Source of the DNA: Myxococcota bacterium
GTDB lineage: Bacteria; Myxococcota_A; SURF-8
NCBI GenBank assembly: GCA_965140415.1
Contig: OZ223209.1
Span: 4,960,001 to 5,024,000 of the forward strand
DNA: 64,000 nt
Direction: 5' to 3'
The notes under the pieces were generated by a model. The model ran no database searches and was not told the DNA's origin. It saw only the letters and a program-made list of their open reading frames with translations. Of the stretch, positions 2,801-13,703 are shown piece after piece (positions within the stretch are counted from its first letter, which is position 1; the number at the start of each line of letters is the position of its first letter). The position numbers and the translations under genes were made by a program.

Positions 2801-2843
2801 ACGATCGTCGTTGCCTTCTGGTTAAAAAAAGATGTCCGAAACG

Positions 2844-2871
2844 AACCGGGCGACTCGATGAGCCGCCCGGT
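2844..2871 (-). terminator. Probable intrinsic terminator after the DUF1573 gene
   Basis: ACCGGGCG...CGCCCGGT stem just after the stop at 2879, with T-rich sequence following on the minus strand. Confidence 0.45.
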
Positions 2872-2878
2872 GTAACAC

Positions 2879-4102
2879 TTACTTGGTCTTCTTTTTCACG
2901 TCACCCGTGATCGGTGGCTTTACCGAAAGATTCTTTTGCCTGAGATGCGGCTTTTTCATGTCCGCTTCGCCTTTCCCTCTAGTGGTGCGGCTGAGCAGAT
3001 ACACCGGCAAAGTCAGTGTCGGTTGATCTTTGTTATCGGTCGCGATAATCACGTTGGAGGTAAAGCGTCCCGATTCCAGTTCCGCCTTCTCGTTCAATGA
3101 AACCGTCAAGCGATACGACGTACCCTTTTTAATCGGGTCGACTTTAATCAGTACCCGACCGCTGGGATCTTGGGCGTTTTTGATTTTAAACTTAACGGTA
3201 TTGGATTGTACCGTCGCCGTCGTTTCCCTGCGGTCTTCCTCGTCGATGCGCAGGGTCAAACGCCGAGGAACGACCTGGATTTCACCTTCCACCGCGACGT
3301 TGAAACGCAGGGTCAATTCCTTGACCTTGGGATTGTTGGTCTTCATCGAAACACGACCGGTCTGGTTGCCGATCTTGGTTCCTTTGACTGTAACTTCAAC
3401 GTAGGTCTGCATCACGCCTTTGTCGTCTTTCTCTTTTACGATTTTGGCGCTGGCACCTTCCAGGCTGACTTCCAAATTGGAAAGCTTGAGTCCCTTGGGA
3501 TTTTTAGCAAGGACTTTCATCCGCTGGGTCAGGCTTTCCCCTTTTTTAATGTTGGGGAAACGCAGGTAGCTGCGCTCGAATCCCAACTCCACGACTACAT
3601 TGGCGTTGACTTTCAATCGCACTTTTGGATTGACCGGATCGCTGGATTCCACGGTTACGCTCTTACCCAGTTTGCCATTACGTCCAGCTGTACTTACCGA
3701 AACCTTGATTTTTCCTTCCCCACCCGGGGGAACGTCCGCGTCGGTAATAACCGCGGCAGTGCAGCCTCACGAGCCTTTGGCACGTTCGATGTGCAGCACT
3801 CCTTTTCCGACGTTTTTGAACGTGAAAATATGTTCGGCCTTGTCACCCTGGTTGACATCGCCCAACTCGACTTCCGTTTTGGCGAATTCGATTTTCGGAG
3901 CGTTGGCCGGATCGACGGGAGCCTTGTCTTTTGCTTTCGTCTTGTCGATCGCGCTGCGTTGCGCTTTCTCGACGACCGGCTTCGCCGCCTTATCGGCGCT
4001 TTGCTCGGATTTGGAACAACCCGCGACACTGGCCATCACCAGAAACGCGGTTAGAACAGCCAGCACAAGCACCGGCGTTCGCCATCTCATTCGATCTTTC
4101 AT
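2879..4102 (-). CDS. DUF1573/Ig-like lipoprotein, probable selenoprotein (TGA 3767-3769 read as Sec in S-U-G-C-T)
   Basis: Track ORFs 3767..4114 and 2879..3652 are in the same frame and separated only by one TGA. Readthrough gives FTFKNVGKGVLHIERAKGS-U-GCTAAVITDADVPPGGEGKIKV, matching the DUF1573 motif S-C-G-C-T...PG. Lipobox VAGC; SD GGAGAG before ATG 4102. Confidence 0.8.
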
Positions 4103-4281
4103 GTTTCTCTCCATTGTCGGTAATCGGTCAATCCATCAGTTAAACGAGCGCAGATCCTATCACAACCACATTCTTCTTTGCAAATTGACCGTACCAAAAA
4201 ACCTATAAAGGGGGTGTGATTTATCACAGCACGTGGTTGATTTTATCGATAGCGATCAAGAGTATCACAAGCTATTTCGGA

Positions 4282-8625: not shown

Positions 8626-11600
8626 TTACATGACGTCCTCTACCACAAAATCGGTCGGAGCGCAATTGCTTTTGCTCTCCGGTTCGTAGTACGGAGATGC
8701 TTCGCAGGAACCGGACGTTCCATCCATCGGATAACGCGCCAATAATTGATACGTGACTTCGAAAGTCTGTTGCGCGTCGATGCGTTCGACGTACAGAATC
8801 AATTGACGCCCGGCTTTCTCGAAACGCTGCAACACCGTATCTTGAACCTGCTGATTGAGCATGTCGGTCATCAAATCGAAGCCCGGCGGCAGGCCAAGAT
8901 CCACCAGCACCATCAAGACGTTGGAATCGGTTACGTTGCTGATACTGGCGGTGGCGGTGACGATATCGTTTACTGCCAGCGTGGTTTTGTCGTATTCGAC
9001 GTCGATCGTAATCGGTCCACCCTGCTGGTAGGGATCGCCTTCGCTGGGCAGCCAGTAACTGGATACAACGCTGTACATCACGTTGCCTTCGCCGCTGACG
9101 ACGAGATTGACTTCATTTTCGCCCGCCTGCAAGTACTCGGTCAGAACGACCTGCTGCAAGACATCGGAGTTATCGGCGTCGATCGTCAACACCGCCGCCT
9201 GCGAACCGTTGGCCATTACGGTGACGGTTGCATTGGCGTTCTCATCGCCGCCTTGCATACTTAATGTAGCAATAAAGAAGCGCAGCGCCTGGATCGTGCC
9301 CGCCGTGGTGGACCATTCGCCAAAGGAGCCCTTCTGCGCGACCAGCCAATCGGTGATGCCGCCAACCAGATCGACGTGAGAATTGGCTTTGATCAGCGCC
9401 TGCCCGATCAGCGCGGTGGTTTCCATTCCAGCCGAGCCGCCGGTGCCGTACATTTCTGTCTGCTGTTCCTGATCCCAATGAACCTTGCCGTCTTCATCCT
9501 CGATACGTAAATCGTAAAGCGCCTGCGTAACCGGGGCGATGGCGGAATCGTTGGGGTTGATGGTAGCCAGCATCATGGCGATCAGACCCAGCGAGTAGTT
9601 ATCATCCATCGCTTCAGAGACATTCGCCTTTACCCAGCTTGCACCCTTGGCGACTTCCGGACCATCGTAGCCGCTTTCGGCCAACGCCCAGGTGATATAT
9701 GCCGTGGTGCGGACCTTGCTGCTGGTGAAGTTATTGACTGCGCCTTCGTGAATGCCGCCCGCATCGAAATCGTAGGAGCCGTCGCTGTTCTGCAATCCAG
9801 CCAGCCAATCCTGGGTGCGTGCGATCATGTCGTCGTCGACATTGTGAACCTTTGCCATATCGGAGAATTCAAGCAGGCCGTAGGCGGTAAGCACGCGATG
9901 TGCGGGCGGAGAACCGAACCATTCGAAGCCGCCGCCGTCTACTTCGTAGCTGAGCAGACGTTGATAGCCCTGGCTGATCTTATCGCGTGCGTTCAATTCG
10001 ATTTCAGGCGTAATCTGGCCGGTCAGGATCATGTAATCGAGCACCAGCACGTTCGGATAGGTGCTGCTCGACGTCTGCTCGAAGCAGCCGGACGGCATTT
10101 GCAGCAGGCTGTCCAAACCTTCGATCACCTGGGAGAGCAGACCCGGATAAACCTTGACCCACAACTTGCTGGCGTCGGCAATGGCGTCTGCCGGGATCGT
10201 AGCCGTAACCGATTTGTCGCCGTCCAAACGACCGCTGACGGCGTTACGCACTTCCAGGCCATCGGGAATGACTTCGATGCTGCGGCGAATGGCATCGCTC
10301 ATCTGATCGCCGATGCCGTTTACGGTCAATTCGTGCCAACCGACTTCCACCACTTTCACCGGGAAGTAAATACCGGTAACGGAATTGGGACCGACCGTGA
10401 TCTGGCGCGAATTGCCTTCCAGATATTCGATCCAGCTTTCTTCGCTGGCTTCCAGCGAAATGGTCTGCGAGGTGCTCAGGTAGTTGTAAATCGCGATCGG
10501 CACATGCACGATATCGTTCTGCGTCAACGTTGCGGGGAAGTCGATGTCGATAAAGAAATCCTGGTATACGATGACGTTGCCGACATTGCTGCCGATCTGA
10601 CCGCTGCGGGTATTGGCCAGCGCCGTCATGCGCCAACTCGTGATGGAATCGGCCATGGTAAAGGAAACTTCCGCTTCACCACCGGCATCGGTAACGACCG
10701 CCGGGTTGACGTACAGCGTTTCCGGGAAGTAGGAACGCACGCGCGGACCATCGCCTTCGCCTTCCGTATCCTTGCCATTCTGATCTTCACCCTCGGAAGA
10801 GGGGTCCGCCGGTTGTTCGTTCCATTCCTCGCCATCGGCCATCGGCGGTTCTTCGCCACCGGCCAGCGCGCCGTCGTCGTCGCGCCAGTCATCCTGGCCA
10901 TTGGTATGACCGTACACGGATTCGGTTACGGTGATGTCGTCGTCGGTGCCGGTTTTTTCGTCCATGCCATTACTGACCAGTTCCAGGGTGCTGTCGCTAT
11001 AGCTCAATTTGTAGGCGTGACCCCAGGGATCGTAGAGCGGATCTTCGGATTCGTTGCGCTGCTCGATCCAGGCTTGAACGCCCTGCGTACCGCTGATGAA
11101 ACCGGCTTCCATCAGCCATTGGATATGCTCCGTAATTTCCGTCAGATCCTTTTCAACCGCTTCGGTGGCAGTGGCTTTGGCCACGGTATCCACTTCGGCG
11201 AAGGTATTGACGTTCATGCCGTAGGCGGCATCGGTTCCGGCTGAAGCCAAAAACGCACCTGCATAGGCTTCACGCTCGTCGGCTTGCTCCTGATCCTCCG
11301 GCTCCGGATCGAGCAGGTCCGCCGCATCGAAGCCATGAATTTCATAGCGCGGCTGCATCAGTTCTTCTTCCAGCGCGAAGTAAACCTTTTCCATACCGGG
11401 TTTCATGTCTTGCAGAGCGAAGACAGCTTCGTCCACCACCTGCACACCGATCACCGACTGCACGCCGTTATTGTCCGCATCTTTGACGCGGAAGGAAACG
11501 GAGGCTTCCTCGGCGGGAGCAAAGGTATCTTTGCTGGGCAGAATTTCCACGGTGAGCGAATTGCCCAGTTCGACGAAGACCAGCCGCCGGTCGCGGATGA

Positions 11601-13575
11601 TTTCACCCGCCGCACCCAGATAGTAGGCCATCAATTCGATGGAACCGTTCAGGGTGGCGTCGATGTCCAGCGTGTAGGTGCTGGCGCCGTCGGTCAACGA
11701 CAGCGTCGTCATCAGCATGGTCTGGCCATCTTTAATGACATCCAGATAAACGCGGTCGGGCAGATGCGCCGCTTCCCAGCCGTCGTTGGTGGCCAGCACC
11801 GAAATCTGAATGGAGTCGCCCACTTTGTAGATCGAACGATCCGTGCGCAGCATGACGTATTCGCGCGCAGTTTCGGCGGAGAAAGAGAACTCGCTTTGCG
11901 CGGTGTCGCCATTAGGCAGGCTGGCCGCCAAATTAAACGACAGGCTCTCCTCTTCCGGCGTCAAAGTGAAGGTGGTCAAGCCCCACAGACCGGTATTTAC
12001 ATCTTCGATGGTTCCGGTATTGCCGTCTTCGCCATGTGTGTAGCCGACATCGATGGTGGCGTTAACAGGCTTGCCGAAAGGATCGGTAGCCATCAGATAG
12101 AAGGTGTTTTCCACGCCCGGCACCAAGGAGCCGCTTTCGGGAACGACCGCCAGCAAAATGGCGTTTTCCACCACCATCACCGTGGCGGATTTGATCTGCT
12201 GATGACCGGCAGTATCGATGACTGCGATTTCCAAGAAGGCATACGCCTGATCCTGATCCAGTTCCTGCGCGACGAAGTAAGTCGGCAGTTCCAGGTCGAA
12301 TTCGAATCCGCCGTCGGCATCCAGCACGCCGGTAATGGTGGCGAAGGTCGTCAGTTCGACGTCGAATTTCTGCGCGGTGATTTCCACCGAACCGCCTGCA
12401 ACCGGCTGACCGAAGAAGTAGTCCGCCTGGACGGAGCCATGCAGGTTGTTGCCGGGGCGATAATAGGTTTTATCGCTGGTAAAGCCAACGCTGAATTTCG
12501 GCAGCGCGTAGCGTTCGACGGTGACGGTCTTCTCGCTGGTGAATTCGCCGACCTTGGCTTCGATTTTGAAGCTGCCTTCATTCAAGATGGTCGCCAGTTT
12601 GAATTCCGTGGAAGCCACGCCGTATTCGCTGGTTTCCAGTTGATCCTTGAACACCTTGTTGCCCTTGGCATCGAAAACGGAGAAGGTCACCGGCAAACCG
12701 GCTTCGGGAGCCAACGCCGGGCGCTTTAAGCAGAGACCGCGAATGTGAATGGTCTGTCCCGGCTGGTACATCGGCTTATCGGTGGTCAACAGGATCTTGG
12801 CTTCACGCGTAATCGCCAACGGGCTCATGGCCTGTTCCTGCTGCTCGCCGCCGGGCAGATCGATCAGGGTTTTGAGTTCCTTGTCGCCGAATTCTCCGGC
12901 AGGCAACTCGATTTTCACATCCGCCATACCGAATTCGTCGGTGGTGCCGGAACCGACCTGCACATCCAGGCCGTCTTCGTCGGTCAAAAAGAAAGCGGCC
13001 TGTGCACCTTGAACCGGCAGACCGCTATTGGGCTCGGAAACGATCAACTTATAAAAGGACTGGCTGCTCTCGAAAACACTGTCGGAGCCGAGTAGCTGAG
13101 CCTGAACGTAACGATACATGGCGTGCAAGGAGCGCGAACCCCAGATTTCGGGTTGCTTGTCTACCTGCGCCAGGTTGAATGTGACGATGTACTTGGCTTT
13201 GTCATCCGTGCCGAAATCCTCGGGTAGATCGGCCAAGGTGACTTCGCTGTCGGTAGTGGCATCTGAAAGATCGATGCGCACCGTTCGTTCGGTGACTTTC
13301 ACCGCATCCAGATCGGTCAGCCCGACCGTCAAATCCACCGAGCGATCGGCAGCTTTTTCCTGATGGATCGGAATCACCACCGAAAGGCCGTCGGAGGTCA
13401 AGCGCGCGGAGAATTCGCTTTCCAATAACTGGAAGGTCGCGCTCTCCAGATTGTCGTTGGTGTTGGTGTTAAAGTCGTCGTCCGGCGAGTCGCTGGAACT
13501 GCTACAGCCCAGCGCGCCCAGAACGAAAACCAGAACCGCGAAAATCCAAATCGGGTAGGTTTTAAATGGTTGCAT
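8626..13575 (-). CDS. Alpha-2-macroglobulin/thioester-containing lipoprotein
   Basis: Lipobox ALGC; MG2 motifs TDKPMYQPGQ and TDRSIYKVGD; VRSYFPETL; DSITSW; thioester PSGCFEQ (GCFEQ at 10075-10089); receptor-domain motif MVLVDLGLPPGF. Start at ATG 13575 with SD AGGAGAG. Confidence 0.92.
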   Translation of the reverse strand: MQPFKTYPIWIFAVLVFVLGALGCSSSSDSPDDDFNTNTNDNLESATFQLLESEFSARLTSDGLSVVIPIHQEKAADRSVDLTVGLTDLDAVKVTERTVRIDLSDATTDSEVTLADLPEDFGTDDKAKYIVTFNLAQVDKQPEIWGSRSLHAMYRYVQAQLLGSDSVFESSQSFYKLIVSEPNSGLPVQGAQAAFFLTDEDGLDVQVGSGTTDEFGMADVKIELPAGEFGDKELKTLIDLPGGEQQEQAMSPLAITREAKILLTTDKPMYQPGQTIHIRGLCLKRPALAPEAGLPVTFSVFDAKGNKVFKDQLETSEYGVASTEFKLATILNEGSFKIEAKVGEFTSEKTVTVERYALPKFSVGFTSDKTYYRPGNNLHGSVQADYFFGQPVAGGSVEITAQKFDVELTTFATITGVLDADGGFEFDLELPTYFVAQELDQDQAYAFLEIAVIDTAGHQQIKSATVMVVENAILLAVVPESGSLVPGVENTFYLMATDPFGKPVNATIDVGYTHGEDGNTGTIEDVNTGLWGLTTFTLTPEEESLSFNLAASLPNGDTAQSEFSFSAETAREYVMLRTDRSIYKVGDSIQISVLATNDGWEAAHLPDRVYLDVIKDGQTMLMTTLSLTDGASTYTLDIDATLNGSIELMAYYLGAAGEIIRDRRLVFVELGNSLTVEILPSKDTFAPAEEASVSFRVKDADNNGVQSVIGVQVVDEAVFALQDMKPGMEKVYFALEEELMQPRYEIHGFDAADLLDPEPEDQEQADEREAYAGAFLASAGTDAAYGMNVNTFAEVDTVAKATATEAVEKDLTEITEHIQWLMEAGFISGTQGVQAWIEQRNESEDPLYDPWGHAYKLSYSDSTLELVSNGMDEKTGTDDDITVTESVYGHTNGQDDWRDDDGALAGGEEPPMADGEEWNEQPADPSSEGEDQNGKDTEGEGDGPRVRSYFPETLYVNPAVVTDAGGEAEVSFTMADSITSWRMTALANTRSGQIGSNVGNVIVYQDFFIDIDFPATLTQNDIVHVPIAIYNYLSTSQTISLEASEESWIEYLEGNSRQITVGPNSVTGIYFPVKVVEVGWHELTVNGIGDQMSDAIRRSIEVIPDGLEVRNAVSGRLDGDKSVTATIPADAIADASKLWVKVYPGLLSQVIEGLDSLLQMPSGCFEQTSSSTYPNVLVLDYMILTGQITPEIELNARDKISQGYQRLLSYEVDGGGFEWFGSPPAHRVLTAYGLLEFSDMAKVHNVDDDMIARTQDWLAGLQNSDGSYDFDAGGIHEGAVNNFTSSKVRTTAYITWALAESGYDGPEVAKGASWVKANVSEAMDDNYSLGLIAMMLATINPNDSAIAPVTQALYDLRIEDEDGKVHWDQEQQTEMYGTGGSAGMETTALIGQALIKANSHVDLVGGITDWLVAQKGSFGEWSTTAGTIQALRFFIATLSMQGGDENANATVTVMANGSQAAVLTIDADNSDVLQQVVLTEYLQAGENEVNLVVSGEGNVMYSVVSSYWLPSEGDPYQQGGPITIDVEYDKTTLAVNDIVTATASISNVTDSNVLMVLVDLGLPPGFDLMTDMLNQQVQDTVLQRFEKAGRQLILYVERIDAQQTFEVTYQLLARYPMDGTSGSCEASPYYEPESKSNCAPTDFVVEDVM

Positions 13576-13686
13576 GATTTCTCTCCTGTCGATCGTTCCG
13601 AATATACTTTCGTTACCGTTTTCCTGTCGAAAACCGGGTACTTCTAAAAGTGACAACTTGTAATAAAGCGCCAACCTATATGATGC

Positions 13687-13703
13687 AGCAAGTTCCATAC
13701 CAA
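13687..13703 (-). promoter_or_regulatory. Sigma-54 (-24/-12) promoter of the A2M gene
   Basis: Minus strand reads TTGGTATGGAACTTGCT (GG-N10-GC), about 110 nt upstream of the start; an AT-rich IHF-like tract lies near 13740-13770. Confidence 0.7.

Follow-up and report, generated by a model that had tools for sequence, protein, structure and literature searches.

The window analysed here is a stretch of 64,000 nucleotides (nt) from the genome of a Myxococcota bacterium (GenBank assembly GCA_965140415.1, contig OZ223209.1, positions 4,960,001 to 5,024,000); coordinates are those of the window unless another locus is named. On its minus strand, translation with TGA read as U (selenocysteine, Sec) gives a single frame of 411 codons at 2879..4114, whose sole in-frame stop is a TGA at 3769-3767. 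Translation table 11 calls two open reading frames (ORFs) in this interval, one of 115 amino acids ending at the TGA (3767..4114) and one of 257 amino acids with a GTG start (2879..3652), both on the minus strand and separated by 114 bases, that is, 38 open codons. A first-pass annotation of this DNA had joined the two into one 407-residue frame across the TGA, and this was borne out, 407 being the number of codons counted from a second ATG at 4102 that has a GGAG just upstream. As argued below, the two ORFs most probably belong to one gene, for a predicted exported lipoprotein of about 400 residues, in which the UGA at codon 116 is very probably decoded as Sec. The gene and its parts are as follows.

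2879..4114, minus strand: complete predicted selenoprotein coding sequence, from the ATG at 4114 (411 codons) or the ATG at 4102 (407 codons) to the stop codon TAA at 2881-2879; eight full-length orthologs align throughout.
4016..4114, minus strand: putative signal peptide with lipobox ..ASVAG-C33 (Cys33 codon at 4018-4016), read from the translation.
3767..3769, minus strand: probable Sec codon TGA (U116), with the matching codon and motif position in 19 other genomes.
3736..3756, minus strand: proximal hairpin, a putative spacer, CCGCG-11 nt-CGCGG, at positions 14-34 counted from the T of the TGA (as are all hairpin positions given here).
3716..3732, minus strand: distal hairpin UUCCCC-CGGGU-GGGGAA, at positions 38-54, with the apical loop starting 40 nt after the UGA.
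3596..3892, minus strand: DUF1573 immunoglobulin (Ig)-like domain, residues 75-173, carrying U-G-C (PF07610, 96.2 bits; local confidence, pLDDT, above 95 in the AlphaFold2 (AF2) model).
2990..3586, minus strand: two more Ig-like beta-sandwich domains, approximately residues 177-277 and 279-375 (AF2 pLDDT 94-98), in a region conserved in the orthologs.

The plus strand reads tca at 3767-3769, corresponding to the minus-strand codon TGA and to U116 in the peptide LHIERAKGS-U-GCTAAVITDADVPPGGEGKIKV. The Pfam profile DUF1573 (PF07610) matches residues 75-173 with 96.2 bits, the cut-off being 26.1; the match covers profile positions 1-98 of 98 and runs across the TGA. The TGA occupies the first Cys of the S-C-G-C-T motif of this family, so that the site becomes U-G-C; both this placement and the openness of the 38 intervening codons had been noticed in the first-pass annotation. 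The motif of the window protein reads N101-V-G103...L107-H-I109...S115-U116-G-C118-T-A, and N101, G103, L107, C116 and C118 are invariant in 42 aligned sequences.

Protein searches in 40 relatives yielded near-full-length matches in seven of them (34-44% identity), each carrying exactly one TGA. In all eight genes, the window gene and the seven orthologs, the TGA falls at G[S/T]-U-G-C-[T/A]-A. The approximately 290 residues that follow it align across the eight genes, the whole alignment having 37 invariant columns; the half of the gene beyond the TGA is thus conserved rather than decaying in orthologs that share the codon. A profile search was extended to a phylum sample of 401 genomes, including the window's own, and gave a match at E<=1e-20 in 31. 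The site is TGA in 20 of these (the window genome and 19 others) and Cys in ten (S-C-G-C or C-S-C; G148, G313, G123, G383, G007, G168, G133, G048, G333 and G243), while one (G093) was not fetched. Both states that had been suggested as worth searching for, Cys and TGA, therefore occur at this position, and Cys recurs at the 75 more distant loci described below.

The genome carries the machinery needed for Sec decoding, in line with what the first-pass annotation had supposed. A tRNA-SeC with anticodon TCA was found (69.5 bits), along with SelA (352 bits), the SelB wing domain and two copies of SelD. The selC, selA and selB genes form a cluster at 1.259-1.263 Mb (G000:C1:1259252-1262655, G000 being the window's genome), and the two selD-type genes lie at 1066875-1067798 and 2076098-2077012. 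One of the latter is contained within an open frame of 734 residues and may be part of a fusion. The genome also holds, outside the window, an FdhA-type formate dehydrogenase frame of 920 codons (locus L148; G000:C1:5908293-5910900, minus strand) with one TGA (L148:1828-1830) at CART-U-HAPTVAGL. This TGA is followed by a canonical selenocysteine insertion sequence (SECIS), GUCGCC-GGUCU-GGCGGC, its loop beginning 18 nt past the UGA. The FdhA-type gene came from a family search; a genome-wide scan that scored codon log-odds to either side of each TGA produced 17,602 raw candidates, of which 700 were left after thresholds, and no useful ranking. A reading of TGA as a standard residue under another genetic code was rejected, since TGA terminates three of the eight ortholog genes and the full Sec machinery is present.

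We read codon 116 as Sec because the TGA is conserved in orthologs, because Cys replaces it in homologs, because it is followed by a SECIS-like element peculiar to the Sec forms (see below) and because the sel genes are present; the same lines of evidence uphold the Sec call of the first-pass annotation. The high confidence expressed above attaches to the identity of the gene as that of a selenoprotein, and to neither the signal model nor the biochemical role discussed further on. A further argument for Sec is its pairing with Cys at this site: among the best 80 loci from public species genomes, TGA is found in five (Myxococcota/Myxococcales metagenome-assembled genomes) and TGC or TGT in 75, of many phyla. 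Some observations pull the other way. The 5:75 ratio is biased towards Cys, a Cys codon having been demanded by one of the two scan patterns. Kinship among the orthologs means that counts across them overstate their independence. Finally, the window protein scores 86.6 bits against the NCBIfam model NF041425 (OS_HP2 family (seleno)protein), below the curated cut-off of 100.

A single in-frame stop that divides a gene into two called ORFs is also what a sequencing error, or a recent nonsense mutation leaving a pseudogene, would produce. This explanation is most improbable: 19 other genomes have the identical TGA, the 290 residues beyond it being conserved, and the RNA 3′ of the codon is conserved specifically in the Sec forms. 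At the level of the base call, contigs of three sequencing runs (depths 39.9, 16.7 and 6.2) show no differences at the TGA, as the first-pass annotation had asked to be confirmed; these runs come from one study that is possibly the source of the assembly itself. Hardly more credible is that the TGA acts as a true stop, yielding a 115-residue lipoprotein and an independent 257-residue protein from the GTG at 3652. Table 11 calls just these two ORFs, and the protein database carries the 257-residue piece (P0002), the only part of the gene that it holds. However, the DUF1573 match crosses the TGA uninterrupted, and the 38 codons between the ORFs are the best-conserved stretch of the gene (G117, C118, A120, A126 and V128-E133 are invariant). 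Moreover, in the AF2 model the 257-residue piece would begin inside a beta-sandwich, and it would lack a signal peptide. The error, pseudogene and two-gene readings are for practical purposes excluded. Gene callers thus split this selenoprotein gene into fragments of 115 and 257 residues; its annotation needs correcting, and the orthologs will suffer likewise.

In a phylogenetic tree, the Cys forms of G148, G313, G123 and G383 nest inside the Sec ortholog clade as two pairs. This fits a scenario in which Sec would be ancestral and would have been replaced by Cys on two later occasions. The tree stems from a quick search with SH-aLRT (approximate likelihood-ratio) support only, 16 of its 39 inner branches being weak, and four Sec forms with uncertain starts or truncated sequence (G223, G273, G046 and G190) were omitted from it. 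The window's own genome also encodes a Cys-form DUF1573 paralog of 310 residues (..ESS-C-G-C-TAAT..IPPGGK; locus L029, G000:C1:2180536-2181186), whose gene is without the hairpins described next.

Two hairpins had been proposed to follow the UGA, and both are present, at 3756-3736 and 3732-3716. The distal one, UUCCCC-CGGGY-GGGGAA, retains all six pairs in 19 of 20 distinct Sec forms and in none of 112 Cys forms. The codons GTT CCC CCG GGG GAA are invariant in the eight orthologs, which are 32-40% identical, whereas 14 Cys forms coding for the same PPGG residues use different codons, such as CCG CCG GGC GGC GAG. Where a column of the eight-ortholog alignment has an invariant residue, the codon too is unchanged in 6 of 10 cases for codons 117-133, as against 1 of 26 elsewhere. 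The 5.98-Mb genome contains the distal hairpin sequence a single time. Taken alone, the hairpin has a folding energy of -8.6 kcal/mol, a 6-bp stem and a 5-nt loop, CGGGU, with G at loop position 2.

The proximal hairpin shows a different pattern. All five of its pairs form in 15 of the 20 Sec forms and in none of the 112 Cys forms. Three of the five have changed on both sides, pair 27:45 of alignment A3 being C-G in 10 sequences and G-C in 7, and 89% of the cells are paired. The hairpin has an energy of -8.7 kcal/mol and, depending on the fold, closes either an 11-nt loop that begins 15 nt after the UGA or a 4-nt loop (UAUU) that begins 17 nt after it. The first-pass annotation was correct in stating that the proximal loop lacks the canonical apical G; it is the distal hairpin that is conserved and carries the G-rich loop. 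Overall, 93.2% of the cells pair, compared with 86.8% in shuffled controls, none of 500 shuffles reaching the observed value.

The distal hairpin is missing from a single Sec ortholog (G270, TGA at L137:2311-2313, minus strand; contig G270:C599). Its proximal stem-loop is long and bears a GGUCA loop that begins 17 nt past the UGA, as though the SelB-binding loop had moved to the proximal hairpin.

The comparison was widened to 134 unique DUF1573 Sec-form sequences, 20 from genomes and 114 from metagenomes, the latter drawn from at least 120 loci among the matches listed. In this set, 129 of the 134 sequences form a proximal hairpin with 5 bp or more. A G[GU] loop in a distal hairpin starts 38-46 nt after the UGA in 102 of the 134, all but one at 38-43; such a distal G-loop hairpin is also present in 24 of the 112 Cys forms. 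A G[GU] loop in the proximal hairpin is found in 41 of the 134, and in 25 of these it starts at 21 nt. These 25 belong to a subgroup (..SSSRLKPGEKG) that has AGUU as its loop and lacks a distal hairpin. Both the AGUU subgroup (+21) and the GGUCA ortholog (+17) would thus use the proximal loop, pointing to an apparent switch of the SelB-binding loop within the family.

In the consensus bacterial SECIS, as set out in the Figure 2 legend of PMC13188914, the loop has 3-9 nt with a G in its first two positions, the stem has 4-16 bp, the UGA-to-loop distance is 16-37 nt and the minimum free energy is at or below -7.5 kcal/mol. In E. coli, the spacing of the SECIS from the UGA is given as 11 nt (PMC8659212). 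From these data a tentative model can be drawn, in which SelB carrying Sec-tRNA would be recruited by a two-part RNA signal within the coding sequence. The G-rich loop of the distal hairpin (+38 to +54) would be the likely SelB contact, and the covarying, sequence-variable proximal hairpin (+14 to +34) would fold away the spacer. With the latter folded, about 13 unpaired bases would remain between the UGA and the distal hairpin, a distance near the 11 nt of E. coli. It is quite possible, judging from sequence comparison, that DUF1573 selenoprotein genes use a displaced two-hairpin SECIS in which the G-loop lies 38-43 nt past the UGA, a spacer hairpin brings it within range, and the SelB loop has switched between hairpins within the family.

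This model has a number of points to contend with. The distal hairpin satisfies the consensus in loop, stem and energy; its 40-nt distance exceeds the 16-37 range. The proximal hairpin lies about where a SECIS is usually found, but in most orthologs has no G[GU] loop. Fold energies of the single sequence are no better than those of shuffles (z of 0.16 and 0.17), so the case for the hairpins is built on comparison with relatives. A search of positions 3500-4000 against Rfam at a lax threshold returned no SECIS family, just a chance match to CRISPR-DR25 (E 2.6). In addition, the pattern used in the metagenome scan required a TGA, and the sequences it contributed are among the matches listed.

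A somewhat less likely arrangement, which we consider doubtful, is that Sec insertion is real and the proximal hairpin is itself the SelB-binding SECIS, the distal one serving in ribosome pausing or anti-termination or merely mirroring constraints on residues and codons. The proximal hairpin starts 10 nt after the UGA, close to the E. coli spacing of PMC8659212; it covaries, and its first loop base in the window is a G. The ..SSSRLKPGEKG subgroup, with its AGUU loop 21 nt after the UGA, makes do with a proximal hairpin alone, and the PPGGEG peptide underlying the distal hairpin is conserved in some Cys forms too. Yet the proximal loops vary in sequence and lack G[GU] in most orthologs, and the synonymous sites of the distal hairpin are invariant in Sec forms only, the codons relaxing in Cys forms that keep the residues. 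Furthermore, the distal hairpin has been lost in just that ortholog whose proximal loop is GGUCA. Either way, the family amounts to a natural experiment on the bacterial Sec signal, in which an invariant hairpin decays when Sec is replaced by Cys and the G-loop apparently switches position. Should the displaced two-hairpin signal be real, search programs confined to 16-37 nt would miss genes of this kind.

The lipobox consensus is [LVI][ASTVI][GAS]-C. In the window protein, V-A-G-C33 comes after a charged n-region and a hydrophobic helix, and a lipobox-like Cys is found in all eight aligned orthologs. These features support the prediction, made already in the first-pass annotation, that the protein is an exported lipoprotein. 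The AF2 model, built on 42 aligned sequences (pLDDT 85.4; predicted template-modelling score, pTM, 0.71), comprises an N-terminal helix (13-27), a disordered linker (32-57), three Ig-like beta-sandwiches (approximately 71-175, 177-277 and 279-375, with pLDDT mostly above 95) and a disordered basic tail. In this model U116-G-C118 sits in the turn joining strands 107-114 and 119-123. No Pfam family matches the two extra Ig-like domains. Foldseek searches against the PDB returned generic tandem Ig-like chains alone (ciliary central-apparatus proteins, cadherins, titin), and a sequence search of the PDB gave no match below E 0.3. In a group of orthologs (L128-L136, family f19) and in L023, an extra conserved Cys lies about 40 residues N-terminal of the U/C-x-C (..I-A-C-D/E-x-P-E-H-D-W-G..); this Cys is absent from the window protein.

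The first-pass annotation presented this as a hidden selenoprotein. That description does not hold at the family level, the family having been catalogued since 2007. OS_HP2 was first predicted in Olavius algarvensis symbionts (Zhang and Gladyshev 2007, PMC1976440; the legend of Figure 5 of that paper covers five families, OS_HP2 not among them). A "DUF1573 domain-containing protein" with PF07610 and the motif UGC appears as a prokaryotic selenoprotein family in the catalogues of PMC9312934 and PMC13188914, and NF041425 is the corresponding curated model. The window protein shares with OS_HP2/NF041425 the DUF1573 Ig-like domain and the position of Sec at the first Cys of C-G-C (U-G-C-T-A). Metagenomic OS_HP2 sequences above the cut-off, the core members at 129-150 bits, share this two-hairpin arrangement, their G-rich loop lying about 39 nt past the UGA. 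They differ in the sequence of the distal hairpin, UCCCUC..GGC..GAGGGA as opposed to UUCCCC-CGGGY-GGGGAA in the window clade, and the window protein differs from the OS_HP2 core in being a lipoprotein, roughly 400 residues long, that carries two additional Ig-like domains. Two orthologs score 108.3 (G004) and 95.7 (G063) bits against NF041425; the window clade lies at the edge of the curated model.

Cys-form PF07610 proteins resemble the window protein in their domain and their N-x-G...S-C-G-C-T-A motif, and frequently in the PPG turn as well. Relatives of this type from Planctomycetota and other phyla align to residues 16-371 at 25-28% identity. What sets them apart is TGC or TGT in place of the Sec codon and, in all 112, the lack of full pairing in either hairpin. 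The resemblance to canonical SECIS elements, those of E. coli fdhF and of the FdhA-type gene of the same genome, consists in a short G+C-rich stem and a small loop with G then G/U, within the coding sequence after the UGA. The difference is one of distance: the FdhA loop starts 18 nt past the UGA, the G-rich loop of the window gene 40 nt past it with a second hairpin in between. The selenoprotein family is therefore already known, and the window gene is an unannotated member of it, in the form of a three-Ig-domain Myxococcota lipoprotein. This extends the catalogued DUF1573/OS_HP2 selenoproteins to such a three-domain lipoprotein form in uncultured Myxococcota. The sole moderately novel element would be the displaced two-hairpin signal with its apparent switching, a judgement made with no literature search aimed at two-hairpin SECIS elements.

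Two candidate features lie in the regions flanking the gene.

2824..2846, minus strand: terminator-like hairpin and T-run, 33 nt past the stop codon (pattern scan).
4240..4268, minus strand: weak sigma-70-like promoter match, GTGATA-17-TAAAAT, 5′ of the start (9 of 12 positions).

The terminator scan found 6 sites, compared with 3.1 +/- 2.2 in shuffles, and it is the position alone of this one that is suggestive; the count of promoter-like sites is not above that in shuffles. An ABC-F ATPase is encoded upstream of the gene. Downstream, all on the minus strand, Pfam recognizes MlaD (53.8 bits), RNase H (94.8), Cytochrome_C554 (33.4) and ResB (121.4), the cytochrome being a 148-residue protein with four CxxCH motifs at 592-1035, 1.9 kb from the gene. 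The mlaD, rnhA, tetraheme cytochrome and resB genes named by the first-pass annotation as lying downstream on the same strand are thus confirmed as such; as a link to the lipoprotein they are positional only, MlaD and RNase H recurring in just two genomes of the same family (G001 and G002). The gene seems to be monocistronic, and little about its function can be gathered from its surroundings.

Most selenoprotein families are thought to act in redox reactions (PMC9312934). Flanking genes at the 75 Cys-form loci of other phyla include those for Cytochrome_C554 multihaem cytochromes (9), Rieske proteins (9) and cytochrome c (2), besides one case each of thioredoxins, DsbD_TM, a 4Fe-4S protein, MauE/DoxX and rhodanese. 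An extracytoplasmic selenenylsulfide redox centre is favoured on account of the U-x-C motif, the usual redox role of Sec and these redox neighbours of the Cys forms, although we advance it as a possibility only. In the periplasm or on the cell surface, U-x-C would cycle between selenol/thiol and selenenylsulfide, working with envelope electron-transfer or thiol-redox proteins. Two observations weaken the case for a redox role. At 17 of the 19 ortholog loci surveyed the neighbours are unrelated to those in the window, so that the proposal draws on the motif and on distant Cys-form relatives, and the Cys-form loci with redox neighbours come from few lineages.

The main rival holds that U-x-C binds a metal such as copper instead of cycling as a selenenylsulfide. 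Vicinal Cys pairs can bind soft metals, and two DUF1573 homologs (P0004 and P0030) carry the name "cupredoxin-like copper-binding protein". Against this, no copper-handling Pfam family was seen among the neighbours at the 19 ortholog loci or the 75 Cys-form loci scanned, and the prevailing view of selenoprotein families as redox-active, as expressed in PMC9312934, also tells against it. Metal binding appears somewhat less likely to us, and the selenenylsulfide centre remains the favoured role.

Some further neighbourhoods were recorded. Full-length Cys-form relatives from Planctomycetota (several of them Brocadia/Kuenenia) and Poribacteria directly adjoin a gene for a Cytochrome_C554 protein of about 450-530 residues (loci L043, L046, L050, L063, L068, L073, L074, L087 and L114); the four-haem cytochrome of the window matches the same Pfam family as this large protein. 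Two Cys-form genes (L097:866-1906 and L105:1298-2338) have upstream a gene for a 347-residue AIRS-domain protein that could be SelD-like, and downstream MauE/DoxX or rhodanese, which may indicate a selenium or sulphur link. In a single case, the Sec ortholog of G006, the adjoining divergent gene encodes a 566-residue thioredoxin/AhpC-TSA and PEGA protein (L039:2-1699). Elsewhere in the window, the minus strand carries at 8626-13698 an ORF of 1,690 residues with a signal-peptide/lipoprotein-like start and the motif ..PSGCFEQ.., which by eye resembles the alpha-2-macroglobulin type.

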